A DNA stretch of 64,000 nucleotides from contig CAVYEI010000002.1 of NCBI GenBank assembly GCA_963767475.1, positions 456,851 to 520,850 on the forward strand. The letters are read 5' to 3'. Each line of letters starts with the position of its first letter. The stretch's first letter is position 1. The notes under the pieces were generated by a model. That model was given only the letters and a program-made list of their open reading frames with translations. It was not told the origin of the DNA and searched no databases. The translations under genes and the position numbers were made by a program. This DNA is from an uncultured Solirubrobacterales bacterium. Its GTDB lineage: Bacteria > Actinomycetota > Thermoleophilia > Solirubrobacterales > 70-9. Positions 2,688 to 64,000 of the stretch are shown here, one piece after another.

Positions 2688-3116
2688 AGGCCGGCGAACT
2701 AGAGCAAACGCGAAGAGCAAGCGCCGACGTCGCCCGCCCTCTCGATCTGGGTGTCTCGCGCCCGGGGCAACGAGAGCCGAGCTTGAGCCTGGCGCGCGCC
2801 GGGATCGCAGGCTTGTCTCCCTCGCGATGGGAGGATCTCCGATCCCGTCGGAGCCGTTCACGGAGTAAGGGGAACGACGAAAGGAACGTGATGAGCGTGC
2901 CTAGTCGACCTCGTCGCGGAGGCACTCATGCCGGGTTGCTCATCGTCGATTATCACAGCGTCATCGTCGACCGTCAGCGGCAGAGATGTGGACACTGCAC
3001 GCGACTCCGACAGCGACCCCATTGGGTCAATGGCGTCGACGACAGTCACAGGCCACTCGGTATCCCGGAGCGTCACGCAAGTCCATCGTCCGTGATCCCA
3101 TAAGCAGCAACCGCGA

Positions 3117-15209: not shown

Positions 15210-18194
15210 ATGGTGGCGATGCCGACGCTAGGGGCGTCCGGCGCGAACAAGGAACCGCATCCGGCCAGGGTGGCAAGCGAAAAGCTGATCGGGCGAGACG
15301 CTGAGCTGGCTGCGATCGATCTCGCGATCGATCGCGTCGCCAGCGGGCACCCTTGCGGCCTTGCGTTCGTCGGCGAGCCGGGCGTGGGCAAGACGGCTCT
15401 GCTCGGTCAGGTCTGCAGCCGGGCGCGTGCCGCCGGTCTCACCGTAGTCGCCGGCCGCGGCACCGAGTTCGAGCGAGGGGTGCCGTTCGGCGTCCTCGTC
15501 GATGCCCTCGACGCCACACTCGCCTCGCGTGGCGCCAATTGGCCGAACGAGCTCACCGAGGAGCGCCTGGCCTGCCTGGCATCGGTGTTCCCGTCGCTAG
15601 CAGAACTTCGCTCGCCGACGTCCGAGCTGCCGTCTCTCGAGGAGCATCGCTTTCACAAGGCTGTTCGGACCGCGCTCGAGGCCATGGCGAATGACGAGCC
15701 GTTCGTCCTCGCGCTCGACGACGTGCATTGGTCGGATCGGGCCTCTGCCGACCTCCTTGCCCATCTGCTGCATCAGGGGATGCGCGGACCGATCTTGACC
15801 GTGATCGCCTATCGAGCGGCCGAAGCACCGACGGTTCTTCGGCGGGCGGTCGCGGGCGCGGCCCGAGATCGCGACGTGGTGGAGCTTTCGATCGCCCCCC
15901 TTGACGAGGAGCAAGCGGACGAGCTGCTTGGAGGCGACCTGCCGGCAGAGCGGCGGCGAGAGCTGTACCGCGAAACCGGCGGCAATCCCTTCTATTTGAT
16001 GGAGCTCGCGCGTGCGGAAGCCTACGCGGAGGTCGGAGCGAACGTAGCGGACTCGCCCGCCGAGCTGAGGCCGGACGAGGTTCCGACGGCGATCCGCGCG
16101 GCGATCGAGCATGAGGTCGAGGCGCGCTCGCCCGGAGCCCGCGCGCTCACGGAGGCCGCCGCCGTGGTTGGTGAACCTTTCGAGCCCGAGGTCGCCGGGC
16201 ATGTAGCCCAGCTCGGAACTGACGACCTGCCATCGGCACTCGATGAGATCGCGGCAGCGGGGTTGATCCGACCGGCGGACGGGGCTCGTGGCTACGTGTT
16301 CCGTCACCCGATTGTCCGGCGGGCGGTTTACGAGTCACTCGGCGTCGGATCGCGCGCGAGCGCTCATGGGCGTGCCGCCGAGTTCCTCGAGCATGCACGT
16401 GGCCCGCTTCCCGCACGCGCCCACCACGTCGAGCGTTCCGCGCGCCGCGGCGATGCGCAGGCGATCGACCTGCTGCAGACGGCGGCAGCAGCCACGGCGC
16501 CGTTGGCGCCGTCGGCCGCGTCTCGTTGGTTGTCGAGTGCGCTCGACCTGCTCCCCGGTGACGCCACCGCCGAGCGCCGAATTTCCCTCTTGATACCGCT
16601 CGCGACAACCTCCGCCGGCGCCGGCAAGCTCCTCGCAGGTCGCGCTGCCCTAGTCGACGCGCTCCCGTCGCTTTCGGGCAAGGACGAAGTCGGACCACAT
16701 GCCGAGCTGGTCAGCTCGCTCGCCCGACTGGACCACGCAGTCGGGCGCGAGCAGGACGTCCGAGCGGTATTGGAAGACGCACTGCGGGAGAGCGAGGCAT
16801 TGACCGCGCAGCAGGAACTCCGCCTGCTCGTGGACCTGGCGGTGAGCTGCTGGCTCGGCGACGACCCGCACGCGCTTGCCAGCGGCGCGCGATCAGCCCG
16901 CCGACTTGCTGCGGAAATCGACGACCGGGTCAGCTACGCGACCCTCTGCGCATTGGAGGCACTCGCTTGCGGTCGCACCGGGGAACTCGACCTGGCTCTC
17001 GCGCGAACCAAGGAGGCGAGTGGTCTCGTCGACCGCTTGACCGACGCCGGCTTCGCCGCCCGGATCGAAGGCCTGCTGCTGCTCGGGCACGCCGAGCTCG
17101 CGATCGGAGTCCCGGCCGCCGCCGCGCGCCGTCTCGAGCGCGGCCTGCGAATCGCTCGGGCCACCAATCAGGTCGCCTGGTCTGCACTCCTCACCAGTGA
17201 GCTGGCCCTTGCCCGCGCACTTGGAGGCGAGCTCAACGGCGCTTCCGAAGCGGCCGACGAGGCGCTGGCCGCTTCCAGCCTCGACCACCCGGAGCTGGAG
17301 ATTCGAGTCCTTTCTGTCCGGGCAACGGTCCACACGGTCGCGGGGGACCTGAATCGGGCAATCGGCTACGGCGAACAGGCGGTGGCGATCACCGACCGTG
17401 TGCCGCGGTCGGCATTCACTTGGACCGCTCACAGTGCCCTCGCGCGGGCGCGGCTCGAATCCGGTGATCCGGCGCTGGCACGCGACGACATCCTTGCTCA
17501 CGCTGGCGGCGCCGAACTCCCAGTCGTGCCTCACGGCGAGCGCGCACACTGGTTCGCCAAGCTCGCCGAGGCGGAGCTATCCGTCGAGGATGTCGAGCAG
17601 GCCGGGACTTGGACGAAGCTGGCTGAAGAGGCGGCCGACGCATACCCGCTCGGGCGGGCGCGCGGCGAAGCGCATCTCGCCCGCGCCCGCCTCGAGCTTG
17701 CAGAGGGACGGGTTGGCGAGGCCGCGGCGCATGCCCGCGAGGCGGCTGACGCATTCCGCTCGTGCGGGCTGCCGATCGACTCAGCCAAGGCGGAGATCGT
17801 CGAGGGCCGCGGCGCGGCGCGCGCCGGCGACCATGAGTCGGCAATCGGACTCCTGCGTGGGGCCGAAATGGAGCTCCGACGCTGCGGCGCGGACCGCAAC
17901 GCCGACGAGGCCGCGAGCGAGCTCCGCGCCCTCGGAGAGCGAGTCTCCCGGCGTGCTCGACCTCTTGCGGGGACCGAGACCCTCGAGATCCTCAGCCGGC
18001 GCGAGCGCGAGGTCGCGGGGCTCGTTGCCCGCGGGTTGACCAACCGCGAGATCGCCGCCCACCTGTTCCTAAGCACGAAGACGATCGAGACCCACCTCAG
18101 CCGCGCCTATGAGAAGCTCGGCATCTCGTCCCGCGCGGCATTGGCGGTTGCAATCGAACGCGCCCCGGCCGAACCAGGCGAACGCGTTCGATAG
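15210..18194 (+). CDS. LAL-type (large ATP-binding LuxR family) transcriptional regulator
   Basis: 994 aa. Walker A GEPGVGKTAL, a long helical repeat region and a C-terminal LuxR HTH (REVAGLVARGLTNREIAAHLFLSTKTIETHLSRAYEKLG). SD GGGAGG. Confidence 0.85.
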   Translation: MVAMPTLGASGANKEPHPARVASEKLIGRDAELAAIDLAIDRVASGHPCGLAFVGEPGVGKTALLGQVCSRARAAGLTVVAGRGTEFERGVPFGVLVDALDATLASRGANWPNELTEERLACLASVFPSLAELRSPTSELPSLEEHRFHKAVRTALEAMANDEPFVLALDDVHWSDRASADLLAHLLHQGMRGPILTVIAYRAAEAPTVLRRAVAGAARDRDVVELSIAPLDEEQADELLGGDLPAERRRELYRETGGNPFYLMELARAEAYAEVGANVADSPAELRPDEVPTAIRAAIEHEVEARSPGARALTEAAAVVGEPFEPEVAGHVAQLGTDDLPSALDEIAAAGLIRPADGARGYVFRHPIVRRAVYESLGVGSRASAHGRAAEFLEHARGPLPARAHHVERSARRGDAQAIDLLQTAAAATAPLAPSAASRWLSSALDLLPGDATAERRISLLIPLATTSAGAGKLLAGRAALVDALPSLSGKDEVGPHAELVSSLARLDHAVGREQDVRAVLEDALRESEALTAQQELRLLVDLAVSCWLGDDPHALASGARSARRLAAEIDDRVSYATLCALEALACGRTGELDLALARTKEASGLVDRLTDAGFAARIEGLLLLGHAELAIGVPAAAARRLERGLRIARATNQVAWSALLTSELALARALGGELNGASEAADEALAASSLDHPELEIRVLSVRATVHTVAGDLNRAIGYGEQAVAITDRVPRSAFTWTAHSALARARLESGDPALARDDILAHAGGAELPVVPHGERAHWFAKLAEAELSVEDVEQAGTWTKLAEEAADAYPLGRARGEAHLARARLELAEGRVGEAAAHAREAADAFRSCGLPIDSAKAEIVEGRGAARAGDHESAIGLLRGAEMELRRCGADRNADEAASELRALGERVSRRARPLAGTETLEILSRREREVAGLVARGLTNREIAAHLFLSTKTIETHLSRAYEKLGISSRAALAVAIERAPAEPGERVR

Positions 18195-18401
18195 CAACCG
18201 GTGGTGCACCGCCACCACGTCGATGTGAGCTCAGGTCCGGTCGCCGTTCTGGGATCCCACCCCCTCCGCCTGCGCTGCGGCCCCGCCTGAAAACCGGACC
18301 GCGAGGCCGACCGGGCCAGCCTTCGTCGCCGGGAGCGGACGACCGCGCTTGTCAGTCGCTGGGTAGGGGCGCGTCTCGACCTGGTGGCCGTGGGACTTCG
18401 C

Positions 18402-18553
18402 TCAGCGTTTGACGTTGTAGCCGAAGGTCTCGTCGAGCTCTCGTAGTCCTTGCCCTTGACGAACTTCCAGGCCTGTCCATCGGCCCACTCACTGAAGTCG
18501 AACTTCGGCCTTGAGAGCGGTGCGGGCAGACCGTCATCAAGAACTTGTGGCAT
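18402..18553 (-). pseudogene. Small ORF with apparent 1-nt frame disruption (MPQVLDDGLPAPLSRPKFDFSEWADGQAWKFVKGKDY / ELDETFGYNVKR*)
   Basis: SD GAAGGAG lies before the ATG at 18553. After KGKDYE the annotated frame becomes Arg-rich and runs into the LuxR gene. An adjacent frame reads ELDETFGYNVKR and stops at 18402. Confidence 0.3.
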
Positions 18554-18717
18554 CGGTGTACTCCTTCGATCGGTGGCTACGGGGCGGGCGCCGCGCCCAC
18601 CCCTTGATGCCTCGATCGCGGGACCTCGCCCCCCTGAACCGCCCGAGCTGCGGCAAGCCTTGAAAGATCGTTGAATTGCTGGCCGGCGCCACTCCAAGTC
18701 GCGACGCTCCCAGGACG

Positions 18718-19833
18718 ATGAAATGCTGGCGGATGTCTCGTGGGCTTGCGAGTCTGGCGGCGATCGGCGCAGCCGGGGCCCTCCTGGGTGCGATGAGCCC
18801 GGGGGCGAGCGCTGAGGACGAGCATCCGTGTGGCAAGGCGGTCCCGTTCCCGCAGTACGGGCTTGAGCTCCAGCCGTGCCCGATCGGACATTCGCTGCCA
18901 GAGGGCATCCCCGTGTACGCGGAGCCGGTTCCGAGTTCCCCGGGGGGACCGATCCCAGCCCCGCAGGGCTGGCTTCGCAGCACCGAAGGCAAGTACTTCG
19001 AGTGCGACCGTATTTATCCCAACGCCGTCTACTCCCACCCGACGCAGGGGTGGCGCAACATCTGGTGGGCTCGTACGATCAGCGACGAGGGCATCTGGGG
19101 CTGGGTGCCTGAGGTCTTCTTCAGGGGCGGCGACACCTACGAGCCCGACTTCGGCTTGCGCAGCTGTCCCCCGCCCCCCGCTCCCGCCGGGCCTTGCGAC
19201 GGGGTCAGCGCGGACAGCGGGGCCAAAGTTCGCGCCCGATTGCGGGGTGGTCGGCGCATGGCGACCACTCGATATGCGGCGCGTCCGCAGGTCCGTGGTG
19301 TGCTGAAGACAACGACGGGCGAGCCGATCGGTGCGACCGAACTGTGCGTCGTCGAGACCAACTCCCGGGGTCCTGCCGGTCGTACCGTCGCCGGCTCGGT
19401 GATGACCAACGACCGGGGCGAGTTCAAGTACCGAGTGCCGCAAGGCCCGTCCCGGCGCGTCGCGTTCTTGTATCGCTCAGGCTCGATCGCCGCATCCGGC
19501 GCAGTCAAGGTCCGAGTTCGAGCGCCGGTGTCGCTGCGCGCGAAGCCGCACTCGCTCAGGACGGGCGAGACCGTGCGCTTTCGCGGTCGGTTGCGCGGGG
19601 GTACCGGCGTGGCCCGCAGGCTGGTTGAGATGCAGGTTCGTCGCGACGGGCGATGGGAATCCCTGCTCGGCACCACGCGGACCCGCAAGAAGGGCGGCTT
19701 CGGCGACCGCTATCGGTTCCGGTTCTCAGAGGGCGTTCAGCATTACGCGTTTCGGGCACACGTCCCGCCACAGCGGGGCCTTCCTTTCGCCGCCGGATCG
19801 AGCCGGCCGGTGAGGGTGCAGGTCAAGGGATAG
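18718..19833 (+). CDS. Secreted hypothetical protein
   Basis: Signal peptide MKCWRMSRGLASLAAIGAAGALLGAMSPGASA. Cys-containing N-terminal domain. The C-terminal half has a beta-rich pattern (VLKTTTGEPIGATELCVVE...TNDRGEFKYRV) reminiscent of carboxypeptidase-regulatory-like folds. Confidence 0.55.
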   Translation: MKCWRMSRGLASLAAIGAAGALLGAMSPGASAEDEHPCGKAVPFPQYGLELQPCPIGHSLPEGIPVYAEPVPSSPGGPIPAPQGWLRSTEGKYFECDRIYPNAVYSHPTQGWRNIWWARTISDEGIWGWVPEVFFRGGDTYEPDFGLRSCPPPPAPAGPCDGVSADSGAKVRARLRGGRRMATTRYAARPQVRGVLKTTTGEPIGATELCVVETNSRGPAGRTVAGSVMTNDRGEFKYRVPQGPSRRVAFLYRSGSIAASGAVKVRVRAPVSLRAKPHSLRTGETVRFRGRLRGGTGVARRLVEMQVRRDGRWESLLGTTRTRKKGGFGDRYRFRFSEGVQHYAFRAHVPPQRGLPFAAGSSRPVRVQVKG

Positions 19834-58825: not shown

Positions 58826-59338
58826 CTAGTAGATGGGCCGGAGCGCGACCACGCGCAAGACGAGACCGGTGTCGGTTAGCCCGCACTCGACGTCCATCTG
58901 GACCTTGCCGCCGCTGTCGGCGCTCAGCACCAGCGCGGCGACATTCTTGCGGGGGTCGTCGGAACCGTCGTACTTGGCCTCCGACAGCCATGGATACGCG
59001 GGGCAGATGGATCGGATGTCCGTCGGACGGTCGTCGCACCGCAACGCAATCCGCACGAGCGCCACCACGTCGTCGTCCGCCATCAGCAGGCGCCTGACCC
59101 AATCCTCGGGCGGTTCGTCGTCCTCGCTTTGGTCGTCGGCAAACTCGACCCGGACCCGGTCTCCCCGCAACGCGCGGTTGATCGAGGCGCGGGGGCCCAT
59201 CGCGCTCTTGCCGACGACCACCATGGCGAGAACCAACCCGAGCACCACTATGAGGGTCGGATCGCTCGCGATCGCCTCGAGCAGAGTGCCACCCACCAAG
59301 AAGGCGGCGATGAGACCGAAGACGACGTAGCCGATCAC
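58826..59338 (-). CDS. Hypothetical membrane protein (2 TM helices plus acidic soluble domain), orphan-operon gene 5
   Basis: GTG start in a GTGA overlap with the upstream stop. VIGYVVFGLIAAFLVGG and LIVVLGLVLAMVVVG helices, then EFADDQSEDDEPPEDW. Confidence 0.5.
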   Translation of the reverse strand: MIGYVVFGLIAAFLVGGTLLEAIASDPTLIVVLGLVLAMVVVGKSAMGPRASINRALRGDRVRVEFADDQSEDDEPPEDWVRRLLMADDDVVALVRIALRCDDRPTDIRSICPAYPWLSEAKYDGSDDPRKNVAALVLSADSGGKVQMDVECGLTDTGLVLRVVALRPIY

Positions 59339-60081
59339 GACTGCTCCTTTCCGCCCAGGATGTCGGTCGCTTCGCCCAGCCAGAAGCGGCGTACGTAAGG
59401 GCCCCAGTCCGGGCTCACCCTCCACTCCAGTGAGTACGTCTGCCACCGGGACTGGCTGGTGACGATCAACGACGGCCCGTCGCTCTCGCTGCCGGGGCGC
59501 CACTCGAAGCGTCGGTCCCCGAACGTGCCGGCACCCTGCGCTCCGAGCTCGCCAGCCTGCCAGCCGCGCCCGATCGCGTCCCACTGCCGCATGCTCTCGG
59601 CCGCGTTGTAGTGGATGCTGCACGTGTTGGCGCGCATGGCCTCCTCCACTGGGGTCGTGGACATGAGCAGGCCGCCCGCCAGGACCAACTCCTCCGTGTC
59701 GTCCTCGCGTTCTGTCGCGTGCCATCGGCCAGCACTGACGGCGTAGACGTACGGCTTGCCGGCCGTGCTCAGCCGGAGCTCCACCGAGTACGCGCGCGGC
59801 GCGGTGTAGTAGGACGGGCGCTGGACCCAGAGCCGCATGCTGCCCGCGCTCGTTCCGGGTCGCCAGGCGAACGCCGAGACCGTCGCCAGTTCAGTGGCGG
59901 CCCGGAAACCGGTGGCGCCGTAGGCGCCCCCAACCCAGAGGCGGTTGACCTCGGCCGCGATCGTGCGAGCGTCGCCCCTCGGGAACTGAAGGTTCAGCTC
60001 TTCCACCAGCGCGGCTTTCGCACTCGCTCGCCAGCAGAGTCCCTCGAACGCGATCAGGGTCTCGGTACGGGAATCAGTCAT
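59335..60081 (-). CDS. Hypothetical protein, paralog of 60551..61324 (orphan-operon gene 4)
   Basis: SD GAAGGAGA before the ATG at 60081. Segments shared with the paralog: FAWRPG..MRLWVQRP vs FAWTPG..LRLYVQAP, and SLEWRVSPDWGPYVRRFW vs SLEWALSPRWGAFVRSFW. Confidence 0.6.
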   Translation of the reverse strand: MTDSRTETLIAFEGLCWRASAKAALVEELNLQFPRGDARTIAAEVNRLWVGGAYGATGFRAATELATVSAFAWRPGTSAGSMRLWVQRPSYYTAPRAYSVELRLSTAGKPYVYAVSAGRWHATEREDDTEELVLAGGLLMSTTPVEEAMRANTCSIHYNAAESMRQWDAIGRGWQAGELGAQGAGTFGDRRFEWRPGSESDGPSLIVTSQSRWQTYSLEWRVSPDWGPYVRRFWLGEATDILGGKEQS

Positions 60082-60125
60082 GGGGTGTCTCCTTCGCGAA
60101 GGCTTGGACATGGCTAGGGATGGGC

Positions 60126-60455
60126 TCACGCCGGCCGGCGCGGGAACAGGTTGCGCTCGCGGAGGTGCTGCTCGGCCTCGAGCTGGAGCTCGAAGCCGGG
60201 GCGCCCGGCCTTCCCGGTCCAGGTGTGGAGGACCTTGACCTTGTCCTCGTCGAGGCCCCAGGGGTGAAGCTCCGAGACGGTGAAGGTGGCCTGGTCGGTC
60301 CCGGCGTCGACCTTTTCCTCGATCAGGAACCGACGCATGGGCTCGAGGATTCCGAAGGTGATGAACTGGCCGTCGGACCGCGGGGTGACGATGGTGGTCA
60401 TGTACTCGATGTGCTGGCGCGCGGGGCGACCGAACAGCATCGGGGTGTCGTTCAT
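60126..60455 (-). CDS. Hypothetical protein (109 aa), orphan-operon gene 3
   Basis: SD AGGAGG before the ATG at 60455. No motif recognised. Confidence 0.5.
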   Translation of the reverse strand: MNDTPMLFGRPARQHIEYMTTIVTPRSDGQFITFGILEPMRRFLIEEKVDAGTDQATFTVSELHPWGLDEDKVKVLHTWTGKAGRPGFELQLEAEQHLRERNLFPRRPA

Positions 60456-60550: not shown

Positions 60551-61324
60551 TCAGAACCAGCGGCCGCCGGTCACCTTGTTGACCCAGGCCCGCCAGCCGC
60601 TCAGGTTGGGGTCGGGGCGGTCGTCAGCGTCGCCAGTCCAGAAGCTGCGAACGAAAGCGCCCCAGCGCGGGCTCAGGGCCCACTCCAGCGAGAAGGCCCG
60701 TTCGCCGCTGCGGTGGCGCGCCACCGTGGTCGTGATCACGGTGCGCTCGTATGGGTCCGGGCCTTCGCTCCAGCGGATCTCGCGGTCGCCGATCAGCCCC
60801 GAGCCGTTGGGCGAGTAGTTGCCCTCGAACCATTCCTTGGCGGTGAAGGCGGCGGCGCCGAAGGTCCCGGTCGCGTCCTCGAGCGCGCAGCCGAGCTCCT
60901 TGTCCATCTGCTGCTCGACCGACTCCAAGCACTGGAGCTTGTCGACGATGATCAGCTCGCCTCGGTCTTGGGGGTGGCCTGTGTCGCGGCGCCCGCCGAT
61001 GCCGAAGCGGTGGGCGCAGGGCCACTCGTCGCCCGGCGTGATCCAGAACTCGATCCAGTAGATGCGCGGAGTCTCGACGCTGTCGCGCGGGGCCTGGACG
61101 TAGAGGCGAAGCTCCTGGGGGTCGGCGCCGGGGGTCCAGGCAAAGGCGTCGAACGTGGCGGCCTTCTCGAAGCCGGGCTTTGCGACCAGACCTCGCTGGA
61201 GCAGGCTCTGGACCTGAGCGAGGGCGCTGTTGGCCTGCAGCTCGGGGTGGGCGAGCGCGGCTTGCATCTCCTGCTTGACGGACGGTTGGCACGGAAGTTT
61301 TCCGAGGCGGACCGAAGAGGACAT
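60551..61324 (-). CDS. Hypothetical protein, paralog of 59335..60081 (orphan-operon gene 2)
   Basis: SD AGGAAGG before the ATG at 61324. See the paralog evidence above. Confidence 0.6.
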   Translation of the reverse strand: MSSSVRLGKLPCQPSVKQEMQAALAHPELQANSALAQVQSLLQRGLVAKPGFEKAATFDAFAWTPGADPQELRLYVQAPRDSVETPRIYWIEFWITPGDEWPCAHRFGIGGRRDTGHPQDRGELIIVDKLQCLESVEQQMDKELGCALEDATGTFGAAAFTAKEWFEGNYSPNGSGLIGDREIRWSEGPDPYERTVITTTVARHRSGERAFSLEWALSPRWGAFVRSFWTGDADDRPDPNLSGWRAWVNKVTGGRWF

Positions 61325-61399
61325 TGGCAATTGCCTTCCTGGATGGATCGCCGCCCCGGCGGGGTGGCGATCGGGTGCGATGTATGCGAGGGAGAACGG

Positions 61400-62182
61400 C
61401 TACGGCTCGAAAGCAGCGGTCATCGGACCGGGAGTGAAGCCCTCGATGAGCAGATCTGGTCCCATCGTGATCTCGGCGCTCGATCCGGGCATCGCGGAAC
61501 GGCGGGCCTCGATCACCTCGAGCACGCGCTTAGCGATCGTCCTGAGCGAGCCGGCGCGGCGACCGAGACCCTTCATGAGCGGGGCGGCGATCGCGGGGTC
61601 GAAAGCTCCGAGCTCTGCCGCGAGGAGGTTCTGGGCGTGTCCGAACTCCCGGTTGCACTCGTGGCAGAACTCGACCGGGATGCCCCCGAACCTCCCTCGG
61701 TACTCGGACCGCCGCTGCTCGCAGACAGCACAAGGAGGCATCGGCGGCCTGGTCACGTTCGGGTCCGGAGCAAAGCGGGCGCCATCGCTGGCGAACCAGC
61801 CATAGCGCTGGTCGTAGTAGTGGTACCAGAAGTTCACCAGGACGTCCGGAATCCAGAAGCGGCCACCGAGCCGGTACCAGCGGGTGGGGATGTCTCGCGG
61901 CGAAAGGAGGCTGTGCTCGGTGGTGGCGGTGGTCAGCTCGACGCCGGACGTGAGGGGGTTGCCATCGGCGTCCTCGATGATGCGGGGGCAGTCGCCCTCG
62001 TCGTATGAGGTGAAGCCGGCGGCCTCGAGGAGGTCACGCTCCGCCTCGGCGGCGATCCGAACGGCGGGCTCCCCATCCGGCCAGTTGAGTGCCGCGACTT
62101 CGTACTGGGCGGTCAGACAGGTCTTTACCAGGGTGGGGTCCAAGGGCGGCACGGTGACGATCACATCGTTGCGGTCGGACAT
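61400..62182 (-). CDS. Hypothetical protein with CxxC...CxxC zinc-ribbon-like motif (orphan-operon gene 1)
   Basis: SD GGAGGA before the ATG at 62182. PPCAVCEQRRSEYRGRFGGIPVEFCHECNREF. The ORF track extends this frame up to 62575 (see findings). Confidence 0.55.
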   Translation of the reverse strand: MSDRNDVIVTVPPLDPTLVKTCLTAQYEVAALNWPDGEPAVRIAAEAERDLLEAAGFTSYDEGDCPRIIEDADGNPLTSGVELTTATTEHSLLSPRDIPTRWYRLGGRFWIPDVLVNFWYHYYDQRYGWFASDGARFAPDPNVTRPPMPPCAVCEQRRSEYRGRFGGIPVEFCHECNREFGHAQNLLAAELGAFDPAIAAPLMKGLGRRAGSLRTIAKRVLEVIEARRSAMPGSSAEITMGPDLLIEGFTPGPMTAAFEP

Positions 62183-62275
62183 GGATCCTCCAATGCGAAG
62201 AGGGCGCGAAGCAAAAAAGGGGGCGGGTACGGCGAAGGCCGAAGGCGCCAACAGCGCCCTGGTCCGCATCAGCGC

Positions 62276-62300
62276 AGGCGAGGGCCTCGCAGGCCCCCGC
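62276..62300 (-). other. GC-rich hairpin (attenuator/terminator-like) between the small ORF and gene 1
   Basis: Minus strand GGCGGGGGCCT-GCG-AGGCCCTCGCC. A second stem (GGCGC-TGTTG-GCGCC) and the run CCCCCTTTTTTGC follow. Confidence 0.45.
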
Positions 62301-62374
62301 CTACTCCGAGAATGGGTGCAAGGTCGAACAGTCCGCCGTCGATCGACCGCGACTGTCCGAGGGGGTTGAGATGT

Positions 62375-62575
62375 CACCGAGGCGATGCCGTCGGGCATGG
62401 CCATGGAGGTGGTTGCCAGGGCGCTCTCCAGGGCGGGCCAGTGGGGAGTTGGGGTGAGGGTGTAGATGGTGGTGGTGGTGGTGATGGTCTTGGAGGAGGC
62501 CTTGCGCACGATGCCGCTAAGGCTGGTGGACATAGGTCGGGGGCTCAAGGCCTTGGTCGACATGCTGGAAACCAT
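62375..62575 (-). CDS. Thr-rich small ORF (MVSSMSTKALSPRPMSTSLSGIVRKASSKTITTTTTIYTLTPTPHWPALESALATTSMAMPDGIASV...), 3' end unresolved
   Basis: SD AGGAGGA lies 5 nt before the ATG. GC3 is about 90% over these 67 codons and then collapses. There is no in-frame stop before gene 1. Confidence 0.45.
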
Positions 62576-62719
62576 ATGTGTCCTCCTACCTACTCAAAAG
62601 CGCCAATCCAACGGGATCGCCAGCGGGTCCGCGAAGCGGAGCCTGGTGACTGGTGATCTATGTAGTTGGTGGACCGTGGCGGCCCGGAAAGCGCATGTAT
62701 AAGGGAAAGAAGTGCCTAC

Positions 62720-62747
62720 ATTGTACCCCGCTGAAGGCCTGGATCAA
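62720..62747 (-). promoter_or_regulatory. Near-consensus promoter TTGATC-16 nt-TACAAT (minus strand)
   Basis: Reverse complement of 62742-62747 is TTGATC and of 62720-62725 is TACAAT. Lies ~140 nt upstream of the small-ORF ATG. Confidence 0.55.
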
Positions 62748-62818
62748 TGCCTTTTTCGGCCTGTTTGCAGGGTTTTTCGCCGATTCGACGCCTTCAGCGA
62801 AGCTTCGCCGAAGGCCGC

Positions 62819-62839
62819 ATCTGGCTCTATGAGCCAGAT
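62819..62839. promoter_or_regulatory. Perfect 9-3-9 inverted repeat ATCTGGCTC-TAT-GAGCCAGAT
   Basis: Located ~75 nt upstream of the -35 box of the orphan-operon promoter. Either an operator candidate or an RNA hairpin. Confidence 0.35.
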
Positions 62840-63360
62840 CCCGGCGATTTGGGGTAGAGGGCTTCGTCGATGCACTAACGAAGCGGAAAGGGGCTTCCTG
62901 ACGCATTCGACGCAGCCCAGGCGGGTCTACCGAAGACCGGTCGCGACATAACGAAGGGCGCCCTGGAAGCCCGGCTTGTGACGAGCGGCGACGAAGCTCA
63001 TGGCGAAAAGGCGTCTCGGCCGCAGCTGAAAAGCCGCTGCCTCAACGTGCCAATGGCCCGAAGGGCCGGGCCCTTCCCCCGGCCCGGGCCGAGCTTCTCC
63101 GTGACTCCACGTGACGGACGCCCGGAACGGTTAGGGGCCTGGCGTCGGCAAGTTCCCGGCGTCGAGCCCGGGGCAATCCGGTCGGCCCTTGGAGGACAGG
63201 TCAGGGCCGTCTCTGCGGGCCTTGGTCGGTTGCTTCGCAGGCCCGTCGCAGCTTCCGATCCGTCCCGGCCGCTCGTCACACGTGTGGCCCTTGCCTGGGT
63301 GCTGGACTGCAGCGACGGCGCCGCGGACCCGTGGTCGGCGAACTCAGCCCGACGTACAAG

Positions 63361-63501
63361 ATGATGGATCTGTCCGACGTCAGTGGTCTCGCCCTCGTTG
63401 CCTACACCGCCGAGGCGGGCTCAACGTCTGCCGAGGCCCTCGACCTCCTCGGGAGCTGGACCGCGACGATCGACGTGGCCGAGGCGGCAGAGCGAGCCTA
63501 A
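63361..63501 (+). CDS. Possible small ORF or C-terminal gene remnant (46 aa, MMDLSDVSGLALVAYTAEAGSTSAEALDLLGSWTATIDVAEAAERA)
   Basis: High GC3 but no SD. The frame stays open upstream without a convincing start. Confidence 0.25.
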   Translation: MMDLSDVSGLALVAYTAEAGSTSAEALDLLGSWTATIDVAEAAERA

Positions 63502-63679
63502 GCGCGCGGCTCTCCGGATCGCTGTCGCATTCACGCGACCCCGACAGCGGTGCCGTGTCGGACCGTGCCGCATCGGCAACTAGGATGCCTCCCGCCGCTC
63601 GCCGCAAACGAGGTGTAAGCCGAGGGCAGCATCACAGGCACCTGTACCTGTCCACCTGATGAACAACGGAGGCGTCGAT

Positions 63680-64000
63680 ATGCCATCTGAGACGAGTCCC
63701 ACCAACAGCGGGCGAGCCCATGTGGACGCTGCGCGTGAGTTTTTCGAGCTCCTGAACCAAAAGGACGTCGATGCGTGGGGCGAGTTGTGGCACGAACAGG
63801 GGAGGATCATCGTGCCGTACCCAGCGGAGGGGTTTCCTGACTTGATCGAGGGCAAGGACGAGATCGTCGGCGGCTTTCAGGCCCTATTTGCCAATTTCGA
63901 CACGTTCGAGACCGAACTGACTGGGGTGTATCCGGCGGCGGACTCGGACGCCGTGTGCGTGGAGTACCGGGTCCACGCAACCCTGGTCGGCGGCACCGTG
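63680..64000 (+). CDS. SnoaL-like / NTF2-fold protein (3' end beyond window)
   Basis: SD GGAGG 7 nt upstream. AAREFFELLNQKDVDAWGELWHEQG is the typical SnoaL/NTF2-like N-terminus. Confidence 0.6.
   Translation, partial: MPSETSPTNSGRAHVDAAREFFELLNQKDVDAWGELWHEQGRIIVPYPAEGFPDLIEGKDEIVGGFQALFANFDTFETELTGVYPAADSDAVCVEYRVHATLVGGTV

Follow-up and report, generated by a model that had tools for sequence, protein, structure and literature searches.

A threonine-rich small open reading frame ahead of a zinc-ribbon gene in an uncultured Solirubrobacterales bacterium: a possible fast-evolving uORF in a portable regulatory leader

Here we present an analysis of a small, threonine-rich open reading frame (ORF) that lies on the minus strand near one end of a 64,000-nucleotide stretch of DNA, hereafter the window, from an uncultured Solirubrobacterales bacterium (GenBank assembly GCA_963767475.1, contig CAVYEI010000002.1, positions 456,851 to 520,850). 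The ORF opens at an ATG at 62575 and, as written, runs for 391 codons to 61400 with no earlier stop, passing on its way through the ATG at 62182 of a zinc-ribbon gene. The original prediction, made from the letters alone, had drawn attention to the strong signals of the small ORF and to its missing stop, and had asked whether it encodes a precursor peptide, forms an N-terminal extension of the downstream protein, or reflects a frame error.

The signals themselves are borne out. A Shine-Dalgarno (SD) sequence, AGGAGGA (62587-62581), stands 5 nt ahead of the ATG as predicted, and 60 of the first 67 codons (62575-62375) end in G or C; this G+C content at third codon positions (GC3) of 89.6% (binomial P ~2e-5 against 67% GC), close to the 90% first given, is attained by just 2.5% of 67-codon windows in all six frames. 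The same codons specify 13 threonines in 67 residues, 9 of them within KTITTTTTIYTLTPTP, and include the (ACC)5 run noted earlier (62482-62468); 15 consecutive codons carry 9 Thr and 2 Ile. First and second codon positions are atypical among the genes here (GC1 0.40, GC2 0.64). By codon-usage log-odds the signal is ambiguous: codons 1-67 fall at the 14th percentile of genuine coding windows and are outscored by 12% of off-frame windows, and the antisense frame with the same third positions does as well as they do. The coding-like signal ends near codon 67, as had been noticed, with GC3 dropping to 59% over codons 68-131 rather than to about 50%. From there frame 0 stays open and enters the ATG at 62182 in phase, by way of the T-run and the SD (GGAGGA) that the original prediction had pointed out, and an alternative frame does read ...DCSTLHPFSE before closing at TAG 62303-62301. 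At this GC content, 64 codons of non-coding character have a fair chance (P ~0.23) of containing no stop.

The zinc-ribbon gene can be delimited independently of the small ORF. A HMMER search with the full 391 residues against 1.84 billion representative proteins returned three relatives of the C-terminal 260 aa, namely P0002 (43% identity, 253 aa), P0003 (38%, 246 aa) and P0005 (30%, 247 aa), which have the CxxC...CxxC motif of the window protein, P0001. Residues 1-15 onward of these three proteins align to query residues 132-145, and the extension is absent from all of them. The gene callers behind the protein database likewise called solely the 260-aa product from ATG 62182, which begins MSDRNDV. 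An AlphaFold2 model of the family was too poor for a fold search (mean predicted local distance difference test score, pLDDT, 50.7). The homolog alignments and gene calls indicate that the real downstream gene starts at ATG 62182, and the proposal of a single conserved 391-aa protein is refuted by the evidence that the original prediction had itself named as decisive.

A single relative of the small ORF was found. P0004, a 99-aa protein encoded on an 876-bp soil metagenome contig (L002), is 69% identical to residues 1-99 and is the sole match among ~15 billion proteins and in the HMMER search of the 1.84 billion representatives; protein word searches with the 391-aa ORF, the small-ORF alignment and an antisense 78-aa ORF gave nothing beyond self or P0004. 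Scans of JGI metagenomes with peptide patterns and with motif A, an upstream element described below, yielded no further copy of the locus. A scan of GTDB genomes with motif A found nothing except the metagenome-assembled genome (MAG) that carries P0002, scans of IMG/VR with motif A, a leader 22-mer and the zinc-ribbon alignment gave no match, and neither did blastn against plasmids and phages.

Comparison with this single relative reversed the picture, in that the non-coding flanks and hairpins proved to be the conserved parts. Identity to L002 is 97.1% without indels over the upstream palindromes (62849-62748), 96.4% (27/28) over the promoter (62747-62720) and 98.3% over most of the leader (62719-62600). 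The SD-proximal segment (62599-62576) is scrambled by a 10-12-nt insertion and a 2-nt deletion, yet AGGAGGA and the ATG are retained. Within the ORF, codons 1-28 (62575-62492) are 91.7% identical and codons 29-67 (62491-62375) 88%, with a 9-nt in-frame deletion in the Thr run. Further on, the region of a first hairpin, H1 (62374-62301), is 94.6% identical, and the segment of a second, H2 (62300-62276), 88%. Homology ceases from ~62262, about 12 nt past H2; the spacer (62183-62268) shows 49% identity with many gaps and a negative frame-0 codon score, and nothing in the window resembles the gene that comes next on L002 (MTTQPYTAADADL...). As delimited by this alignment, the conserved cassette is ~590 bp long (62849-62264); its promoter, leader and hairpins are conserved, and it is joined to different downstream genes in the two contexts found.

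Set against its surroundings, the ORF is the variable part of the cassette: mismatches number 20/192 in the ORF and 6/250 in the non-coding DNA upstream (Fisher P = 4e-4). Over 81 codons the Nei-Gojobori method counts 5.5 synonymous and 17.5 non-synonymous differences, a ratio of non-synonymous to synonymous rates (dN/dS) of 1.23; the differences are spread 9/8/6 over the three codon positions, and a ratio (omega) of <=0.3 is rejected (P ~0.003). The peptide is thus, in this pair of sequences, under no detectable purifying selection. The Thr run is present in L002 too, and GC3 is ~90% in both copies.

At the 3' end of the ORF the two copies differ in frame. L002 keeps frame 0 to codon 82, which speaks against the frameshift near codon 67 (the GDISTPSD... 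reading) first proposed; the shift comes only at 62331, where the window has C and L002 has CC, and it puts L002 into the frame of the window's TAG. The window ORF is therefore indeed one base short, relative to its only homolog, of the frame that would reach TAG. In L002, however, that TAG is CAG, and a further 1-nt insertion in the H2 loop takes the frame on to a TGA equivalent to window 62271-62269. The original prediction had proposed that homologous loci would reveal which frame is conserved; L002 allows the comparison, and by it neither the frame nor the stop is kept at the 3' end. A programmed -1 frameshift at CAA-CCC-CCU before H1 was considered and rejected, the heptamer not being slippery, the spacer being ~0-1 nt and the -1 frame being unclosed in L002.

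What is kept in this region is structure. H1 folds with -22.7 kcal/mol in the window and -24.4 kcal/mol in L002, where the helix is re-registered, the extra C is accommodated in a bulge and G62337C makes a new pair. H2 has a 14-bp GC stem (62304-62274) with its loop at 62290-62288, extended to 62309-62269 (z = -4.4); it is longer than the GC hairpin at 62276-62300 that had been described, and the TAG, formerly placed at the hairpin's foot, sits inside its 5' arm, with TGA 62271-62269 at its 3' foot. All four H2 substitutions in L002 keep pairing: U62303C turns U.G into C-G and by the same change removes the TAG, U62281C turns G.U into G-C, and U62291C with A62287G is a double compensatory change from U-A to C-G; the indel falls in the loop. 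The second stem of the original prediction lies after H2 in the non-conserved spacer, and the strong second hairpin, H1, is upstream. Because the H2 substitutions keep pairing and H1 keeps a stable helix, 62366-62269 behaves as structured RNA or DNA rather than as coding sequence. Minimum free energy (MFE) and centroid folds give H1 and H2 as independent hairpins, with no alternative pairing that stands out, a pair of sequences being too few for covariation. No U-tract follows H2, the sequence there being GCGCUGAUGCGG, and the terminator calls include no site on the minus strand.

Upstream of the ORF, the cassette holds two palindromes, P1 (ATCTGGCTC-ATA-GAGCCAGAT, 62839-62819) and P2 (62815-62790, centre AAGCTT), which motif A (AGAGCCAGATGCGGCCTTCGGCGA, 62828-62805) overlaps. 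The promoter that follows is the sole promoter-like site on the minus strand within 61000-64000 and would serve as the operon promoter. In the leader (folding z = -2.6), a 5' pyrimidine stretch, CUUCUUUCC, is predicted to pair with the SD AGGAGGA, and a small 5' hairpin, GGGCCG-CCA-CGGUCC, is formed. Rfam gave no match at E <= 1 on either strand of 61000-64000, and a tRNA scan had no hits. Coding on the plus strand under the leader and palindromes was considered and rejected, the frames being broken by indels between the window and L002.

A third copy of the leader is found at the locus of P0002 (L003), in the "uncultured Solirubrobacterales" MAG MFD04212.bin.1.232, where 456 bp of intergenic DNA precede the gene. 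Motif A (AGAGCCARATGCRGCCTTCGSCGA) lies there ~70 nt upstream of the -35, the same distance as in the window, and the aligned position holds a promoter, TTGACA...TAGGCT. The two loci have in common a pyrimidine-rich transcript start, CTTTCCSGGC, the element GATCCCGTTG ~45 nt before the start codon, and AGGAGGA. In L003 this leader and its AGGAGGA run straight into the ATG of P0002 with no small ORF between, and in the window and L002 the small ORF is the first ORF behind the homologous SD. When the window and L003 leaders are folded singly, the SD pairs with the 5' CUUCUU/CUCUUC in each; an RNAalifold consensus computed from all three leaders retains both this anti-SD:SD helix and the 6-bp 5' hairpin, despite changes on both sides. 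The SD at 62587-62581 is thus likely to mark a genuine translation start region, and ribosomes would start at ATG 62575, given that a real protein is initiated from the homologous leader and SD of L003. As an observation in its own right, the 24 nt of motif A recur (window 62828-62805, L003 9696-9719) in otherwise diverged promoter regions, with no occurrence elsewhere in GTDB representative genomes, JGI metagenomes or IMG/VR; the motif is a candidate binding site for a regulator.

Between start codon and hairpins, the Thr codons fall in a tract (62507-62430) that is the top 78-nt window of the 64 kb on either strand for excess of C over G (C 55%, G 10%, C-G = 0.449; next 0.321). L002 has a value of 0.474, and the MFE fold leaves most of the tract unpaired. 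A C-rich, G-poor composition is that of a Rho loading site, and Rho may act here. The parts of the locus are collected in Table 1.

Table 1. Parts of the small-ORF cassette and of the adjoining zinc-ribbon gene in the window
Feature	Position	Strand	Basis
Conserved upstream element: palindromes P1 and P2, motif A	62748-62849	-	97.1% identity to L002
Sigma-70-like promoter, TTGATC-16 nt-TACAAT	62720-62747	-	promoter scan, L002/L003 alignment
Structured 5' leader, ~138 nt (transcription start site predicted at ~62713)	62576-62719	-	L002 identity, folding
Coding-like part of the putative upstream ORF, codons 1-67, MVSSMSTKAL...GIASV	62375-62575	-	GC3, SD/ATG retained in L002
C-rich, G-poor tract including the Thr-codon run, rut-like composition	62430-62507	-	composition scan
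Hairpin H1, near-palindrome around GTCGATCGAC; holds indel site C62331	62324-62360	-	folding in both copies
Hairpin H2, end of conserved cassette	62269-62309	-	folding, pair-preserving changes
Non-conserved spacer with T-run (62218-62213) and zinc-ribbon SD (62191-62186)	62183-62268	-	unrelated to L002
260-aa CxxC...CxxC zinc-ribbon protein, P0001	61400-62182	-	database gene call, homolog starts, GC3 0.85

The reading that we favour, with about even confidence, is that the 391-codon ORF is a chance in-frame run-on of an upstream ORF (uORF), the hairpins and spacer, and the 260-aa gene, the uORF belonging to a portable regulatory leader. The small ORF would be a fast-evolving uORF that is probably translated. 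Read in order, as two palindromes, promoter, SD-pairing leader, SD and ATG, C-rich Thr-codon tract, H1 and H2, the cassette would form the 5' regulatory region of a variable operon of ORFans in an uncultured soil actinobacterium. Ribosomes would initiate at ATG 62575 once the leader, which would gate the uORF by masking its SD, allows it; by covering the C-rich tract and melting H1 and H2 they would set how much transcription or translation reaches the downstream genes. Translation itself, not its peptide product, would matter, if anything does. Such a uORF-coupled polarity or attenuation device, possibly Rho-dependent, would be sensitive to Thr-tRNA supply or to SD unmasking. Of the regulatory leader or attenuator first suggested, a uORF in the leader of the downstream genes with a plausible role in cis stands, and a classical attenuator, in view of the missing U-tract and of the lack of Thr/Ile biosynthesis genes, does not.

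Several points weigh against this reading. A GC3 of 90% resembles that of selected coding sequence and is 82% even in non-NCC codons (hand count), so that a real but fast-evolving small protein may still be viable. H2 lacks a U-tract, and the mechanism in cis is deduced from sequence features. The ORF as written makes a 391-aa fusion, an odd design for a regulator. As the ORF is known in two copies and the leader in three, the statements on selection and covariation rest on very few events. Finally, the assembly is probably Nanopore-only, and an indel error at 62331 is possible.

The basis of the assembly bears directly on this last point. A Logan contig (L001, 8310 bp; run ERR11593888) matches window 64000-55691 with 100% identity and no gaps, and the same run holds a P0002 gene identical to that of MFD04212.bin.1.232, whose source project is Nanopore-only and Medaka-polished (PMC12313526). 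L001 and the window assembly probably share reads, and these are probably Nanopore reads; a systematic indel may therefore be present. The difference at 62331 is of C against CC, with no long homopolymer, and at least five other indels separate the window from L002. The missing stop would accordingly seem to reflect a real 1-nt indel in a region of frequent indels between copies.

An unlikely but credible alternative is that the locus holds a genuine small-protein gene of about 91-99 aa, its product rich in Ser, Thr and Pro and disordered, that is frameshifted here by loss of a C at 62331 through mutation or assembly error. With CC at that site, translation would continue as ...VDRRRTCSTLHPFSE to TAG 62303, giving an ORF of 91 aa. 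The strong SD and ATG retained in L002 despite adjoining indels, the in-frame 9-nt indel, the high GC3 of both copies, the identity of CSTLHPFSE in the two once the shift is allowed, the intact 99-aa ORF of L002, which was called as a gene, and the Nanopore-only, Medaka-polished sister MAG project are all consistent with such a gene. They are met, however, by a dN/dS of ~1.2 with an even spread over codon positions in an ORF four times more diverged than the adjacent non-coding DNA, and by a stop that is not conserved, TAG here and CAG in L002, the change being explained by stem pairing. L002 moreover arrives at its own stop only by way of a second 1-nt insertion, GC3 in codons 68-82 is non-coding-like, H1 and H2 occupy the supposed C-terminus, the ~15 billion proteins hold no other homolog, and a real indel is the simpler reading of C versus CC where no long homopolymer and at least five other indels are seen.

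It is also conceivable, though again unlikely, that the small ORF has no function and is what remains of a lost gene (its 5' stub) or a proto-gene in decay, caught between the promoter and leader and a new cargo, with H1 and H2 as an old terminator or recombination boundary and with incidental translation that has no regulatory role. The neutral-looking divergence agrees with this, as do the way in which the coding-like signal breaks off at codon 67 without a stop, the different cargo after H2 in the two copies, the ability of the L003 leader to drive the zinc-ribbon gene directly, and the rearranged, island-like surroundings (an MmyB-like fragment, a Replic_Relax gene and a PDC-S54 candidate, described below). 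On the other hand, H1 and H2 are kept by pair-preserving changes and 62374-62301 is 94.6% identical, so that at least the 3' part is constrained; the SD and ATG have been retained through nearby indels, the extreme C-over-G composition has been retained in both copies, and no parent gene was found by HMMER among the 1.84 billion representatives.

More speculatively, and rather improbably in our estimate, the cassette could be a portable expression switch of a new kind for island-borne cargo genes in Solirubrobacterales-like actinobacteria. The structured leader would gate the SD of a long uORF; the ACC-rich sequence would double as a Thr-codon sensor and a Rho-loading site; and ribosomes crossing H1 and H2, with no need of a fixed frame or stop, would decide whether transcription reaches the cargo. 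A selected absence of a stop before the hairpins would then explain why both copies are open across H1 and H2 in different frames.

A threonine (Thr/Ile) leader-peptide attenuator, in which stalling at the ACC/ATC run favours an antiterminator over an intrinsic terminator, seems very unlikely. The Thr/Ile codon run is reminiscent of E. coli thrL; its 9 Thr and 2 Ile in 15 codons, its presence in L002, the stable hairpins downstream and the single promoter upstream would all suit such a device. Yet H2 lacks a U-tract and the minus strand has no called terminator-like site, the Thr run lies ~145 nt before H2 in an ORF that runs on into the hairpins, the folds offered no convincing alternative antiterminator pairing, and the downstream genes are ORFans that differ between copies, not genes of Thr/Ile biosynthesis or a tRNA synthetase.

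The precursor of a ribosomally synthesized and post-translationally modified peptide (RiPP), with a Thr-rich core and with the downstream genes as tailoring enzymes, as the original prediction had imagined, is highly improbable: the N-terminus is better conserved (codons 1-28, 91.7%) than the Thr-rich middle, and novel enzymes are conceivable among downstream proteins of no known family, but Pfam and NCBIfam show no RiPP enzyme, protease or transporter family in the eight downstream ORFs (the nearest match being ADH-like, ~3.5 kb off), PHROGs and PADLOC match none of the five nearest, an unrelated gene follows the ORF in L002, P0002, P0003 and P0005 are without the small ORF (at the DNA level, L003), no closed ORF exists here, the would-be leader part takes non-synonymous changes, and there is no homolog family. 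Just as improbable is the idea that the full 391 aa act as a functional long form of the zinc-ribbon protein, carrying 131 disordered residues as an N-terminal extension. The frame is open, in phase and identical in the separately assembled Logan contig, but four of four family members start at the internal ATG with its own SD, translation of hairpins and spacer accounts for residues 68-131, where the codon score is negative, in L002 the upstream ORF and the following gene are separate, and the chance of an open, in-phase frame is ~0.23 x 1/3.

The surroundings of the cassette look like a variable, mobile or defence island. Among the eight ORFs downstream, Pfam and NCBIfam matched only ADH-like, aminotransferase and UDP-glucose dehydrogenase families, all at least 3.5 kb away, and the five nearest have no Pfam, NCBIfam, PHROG or PADLOC family. 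Two ORFan paralogs follow the zinc-ribbon gene on the minus strand (60551-61330 and 59335-60129; 30% identity, E = 2e-24). The operons of the window and L003 have no genes in common except P0001/P0002. Homologs of a 994-aa LuxR/MalT-type regulator and two neighbours (window 15210-19833) adjoin the P0002 operon (L003 1-5687); in the window these genes lie 43 kb from P0001 and in a different relative orientation than in the MAG.

On the other side of the cassette, a 56-aa ORF on the plus strand (63331-63501) matches the C-terminal end of an MmyB-like ligand-binding domain (PF17765, E = 2e-4, below the curated cutoff). No N-terminal part was found upstream of it, and the remainder of an MmyB-like pseudogene, considered as a possible occupant of the DNA beneath the cassette, is not present there; 63331-63501 is a truncated gene, with a rearrangement breakpoint ~480 nt from the cassette. 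A perfect 13-nt inverted repeat, TGTGACGAGCGGC / GCCGCTCGTCACA (62977-62989, 63268-63280), flanks 278 nt, upstream of the cassette, that appear to be non-coding, and no terminal inverted repeats of a miniature inverted-repeat transposable element (MITE) or insertion sequence (IS) were found flanking the cassette itself. Beyond window position 64000, L001 1-3835 encodes a Replic_Relax protein (PF13814) and a 403-aa PADLOC candidate defence protein, PDC-S54 (E = 3e-88); a SnoaL_2 protein gene (L001 3719-4177) spans the window end. Opposite the small ORF and leader, a 78-aa product, P0006 (window 62466-62702, plus strand), is present in a public protein collection, its gene having been called on L001; its high GC3 is explained by third-codon positions common with the minus-strand ORF, its frame is broken in L002, and it is very probably a false gene call. 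Far from the cassette, a perfect 300-nt direct repeat (1952-2251 and 2728-3027, 776-nt spacing) has arisen either by recent tandem duplication or as an artefact of long-read assembly.

For annotation, the start of the zinc-ribbon gene should be placed at 62182, and neither the 391-aa ORF nor the antisense 78-aa call is fit to be propagated as a protein. More generally, a strong SD and 90% GC3 in a high-GC genome are no proof of a functional peptide. A cassette with two known copies is a lead rather than a finding and too thin for claiming a new mechanism. If the cis-regulatory reading is true, the cassette would be a compact, transferable module of promoter, leader and uORF from a barely studied actinobacterial order, and an example of C-rich uORF control.

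Set beside known systems, the cassette would seem to work most like uORF-containing leaders such as toiL-topAI, any membership in the classes compared being tentative. The testable features of RiPP loci and classical attenuators are lacking here, the Thr/Ile codon run excepted. With RiPP precursor genes the cassette shares a small Ser/Thr-rich ORF, a strong ribosome binding site (RBS) and adjoining genes of unknown function; unlike them, it has no recognisable tailoring, protease or export genes, no co-inheritance, no closed frame and no precursor family. Like the pervasively translated small ORFs (sORFs) or proto-genes of M. tuberculosis, the ORF is unannotated and has good initiation signals, and no purifying selection is seen (PMC9094748). 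The same paper treats a codon-position G/C skew as a hallmark of selection (PMC9094748); the GC3 skew of the cassette ORF is stronger than in those sORFs, yet its dN/dS is ~1, and it lies amid conserved non-coding parts. Attenuators of the thrL type and the mycobacterial polycysteine leaderless sORFs (bioRxiv 10.1101/834739) resemble it in having a run of codons for a single amino acid at the head of an operon, the latter likewise in an actinobacterium. The cassette differs from them in having neither a U-tract terminator nor a demonstrated antiterminator, in preceding genes unrelated to Thr metabolism, and in an ORF that is leadered, long and equipped with a strong SD.

Further uORFs in bacterial leaders of the toiL-topAI kind are tnaC and mgtL. 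In toiL-topAI of E. coli, a regulatory uORF couples translation to structure and to Rho-dependent termination (PMC12121999). The cassette departs from this type in several respects: its ORF has at least 67 codons against 8-30 and, in this copy, stays open into the downstream gene, the SD that is occluded is the uORF's own, two copies are known, and any role of Rho or of a stress is hypothetical. The likenesses are that a long leader carries a short ORF with its own SD ahead of genes that would be regulated, that leader structure would occlude an RBS with no need for the peptide sequence to be conserved, and that a C-rich, G-poor, unstructured, rut-like (Rho utilization) tract, found here at 62507-62430 and kept in L002, could load Rho when free of ribosomes.

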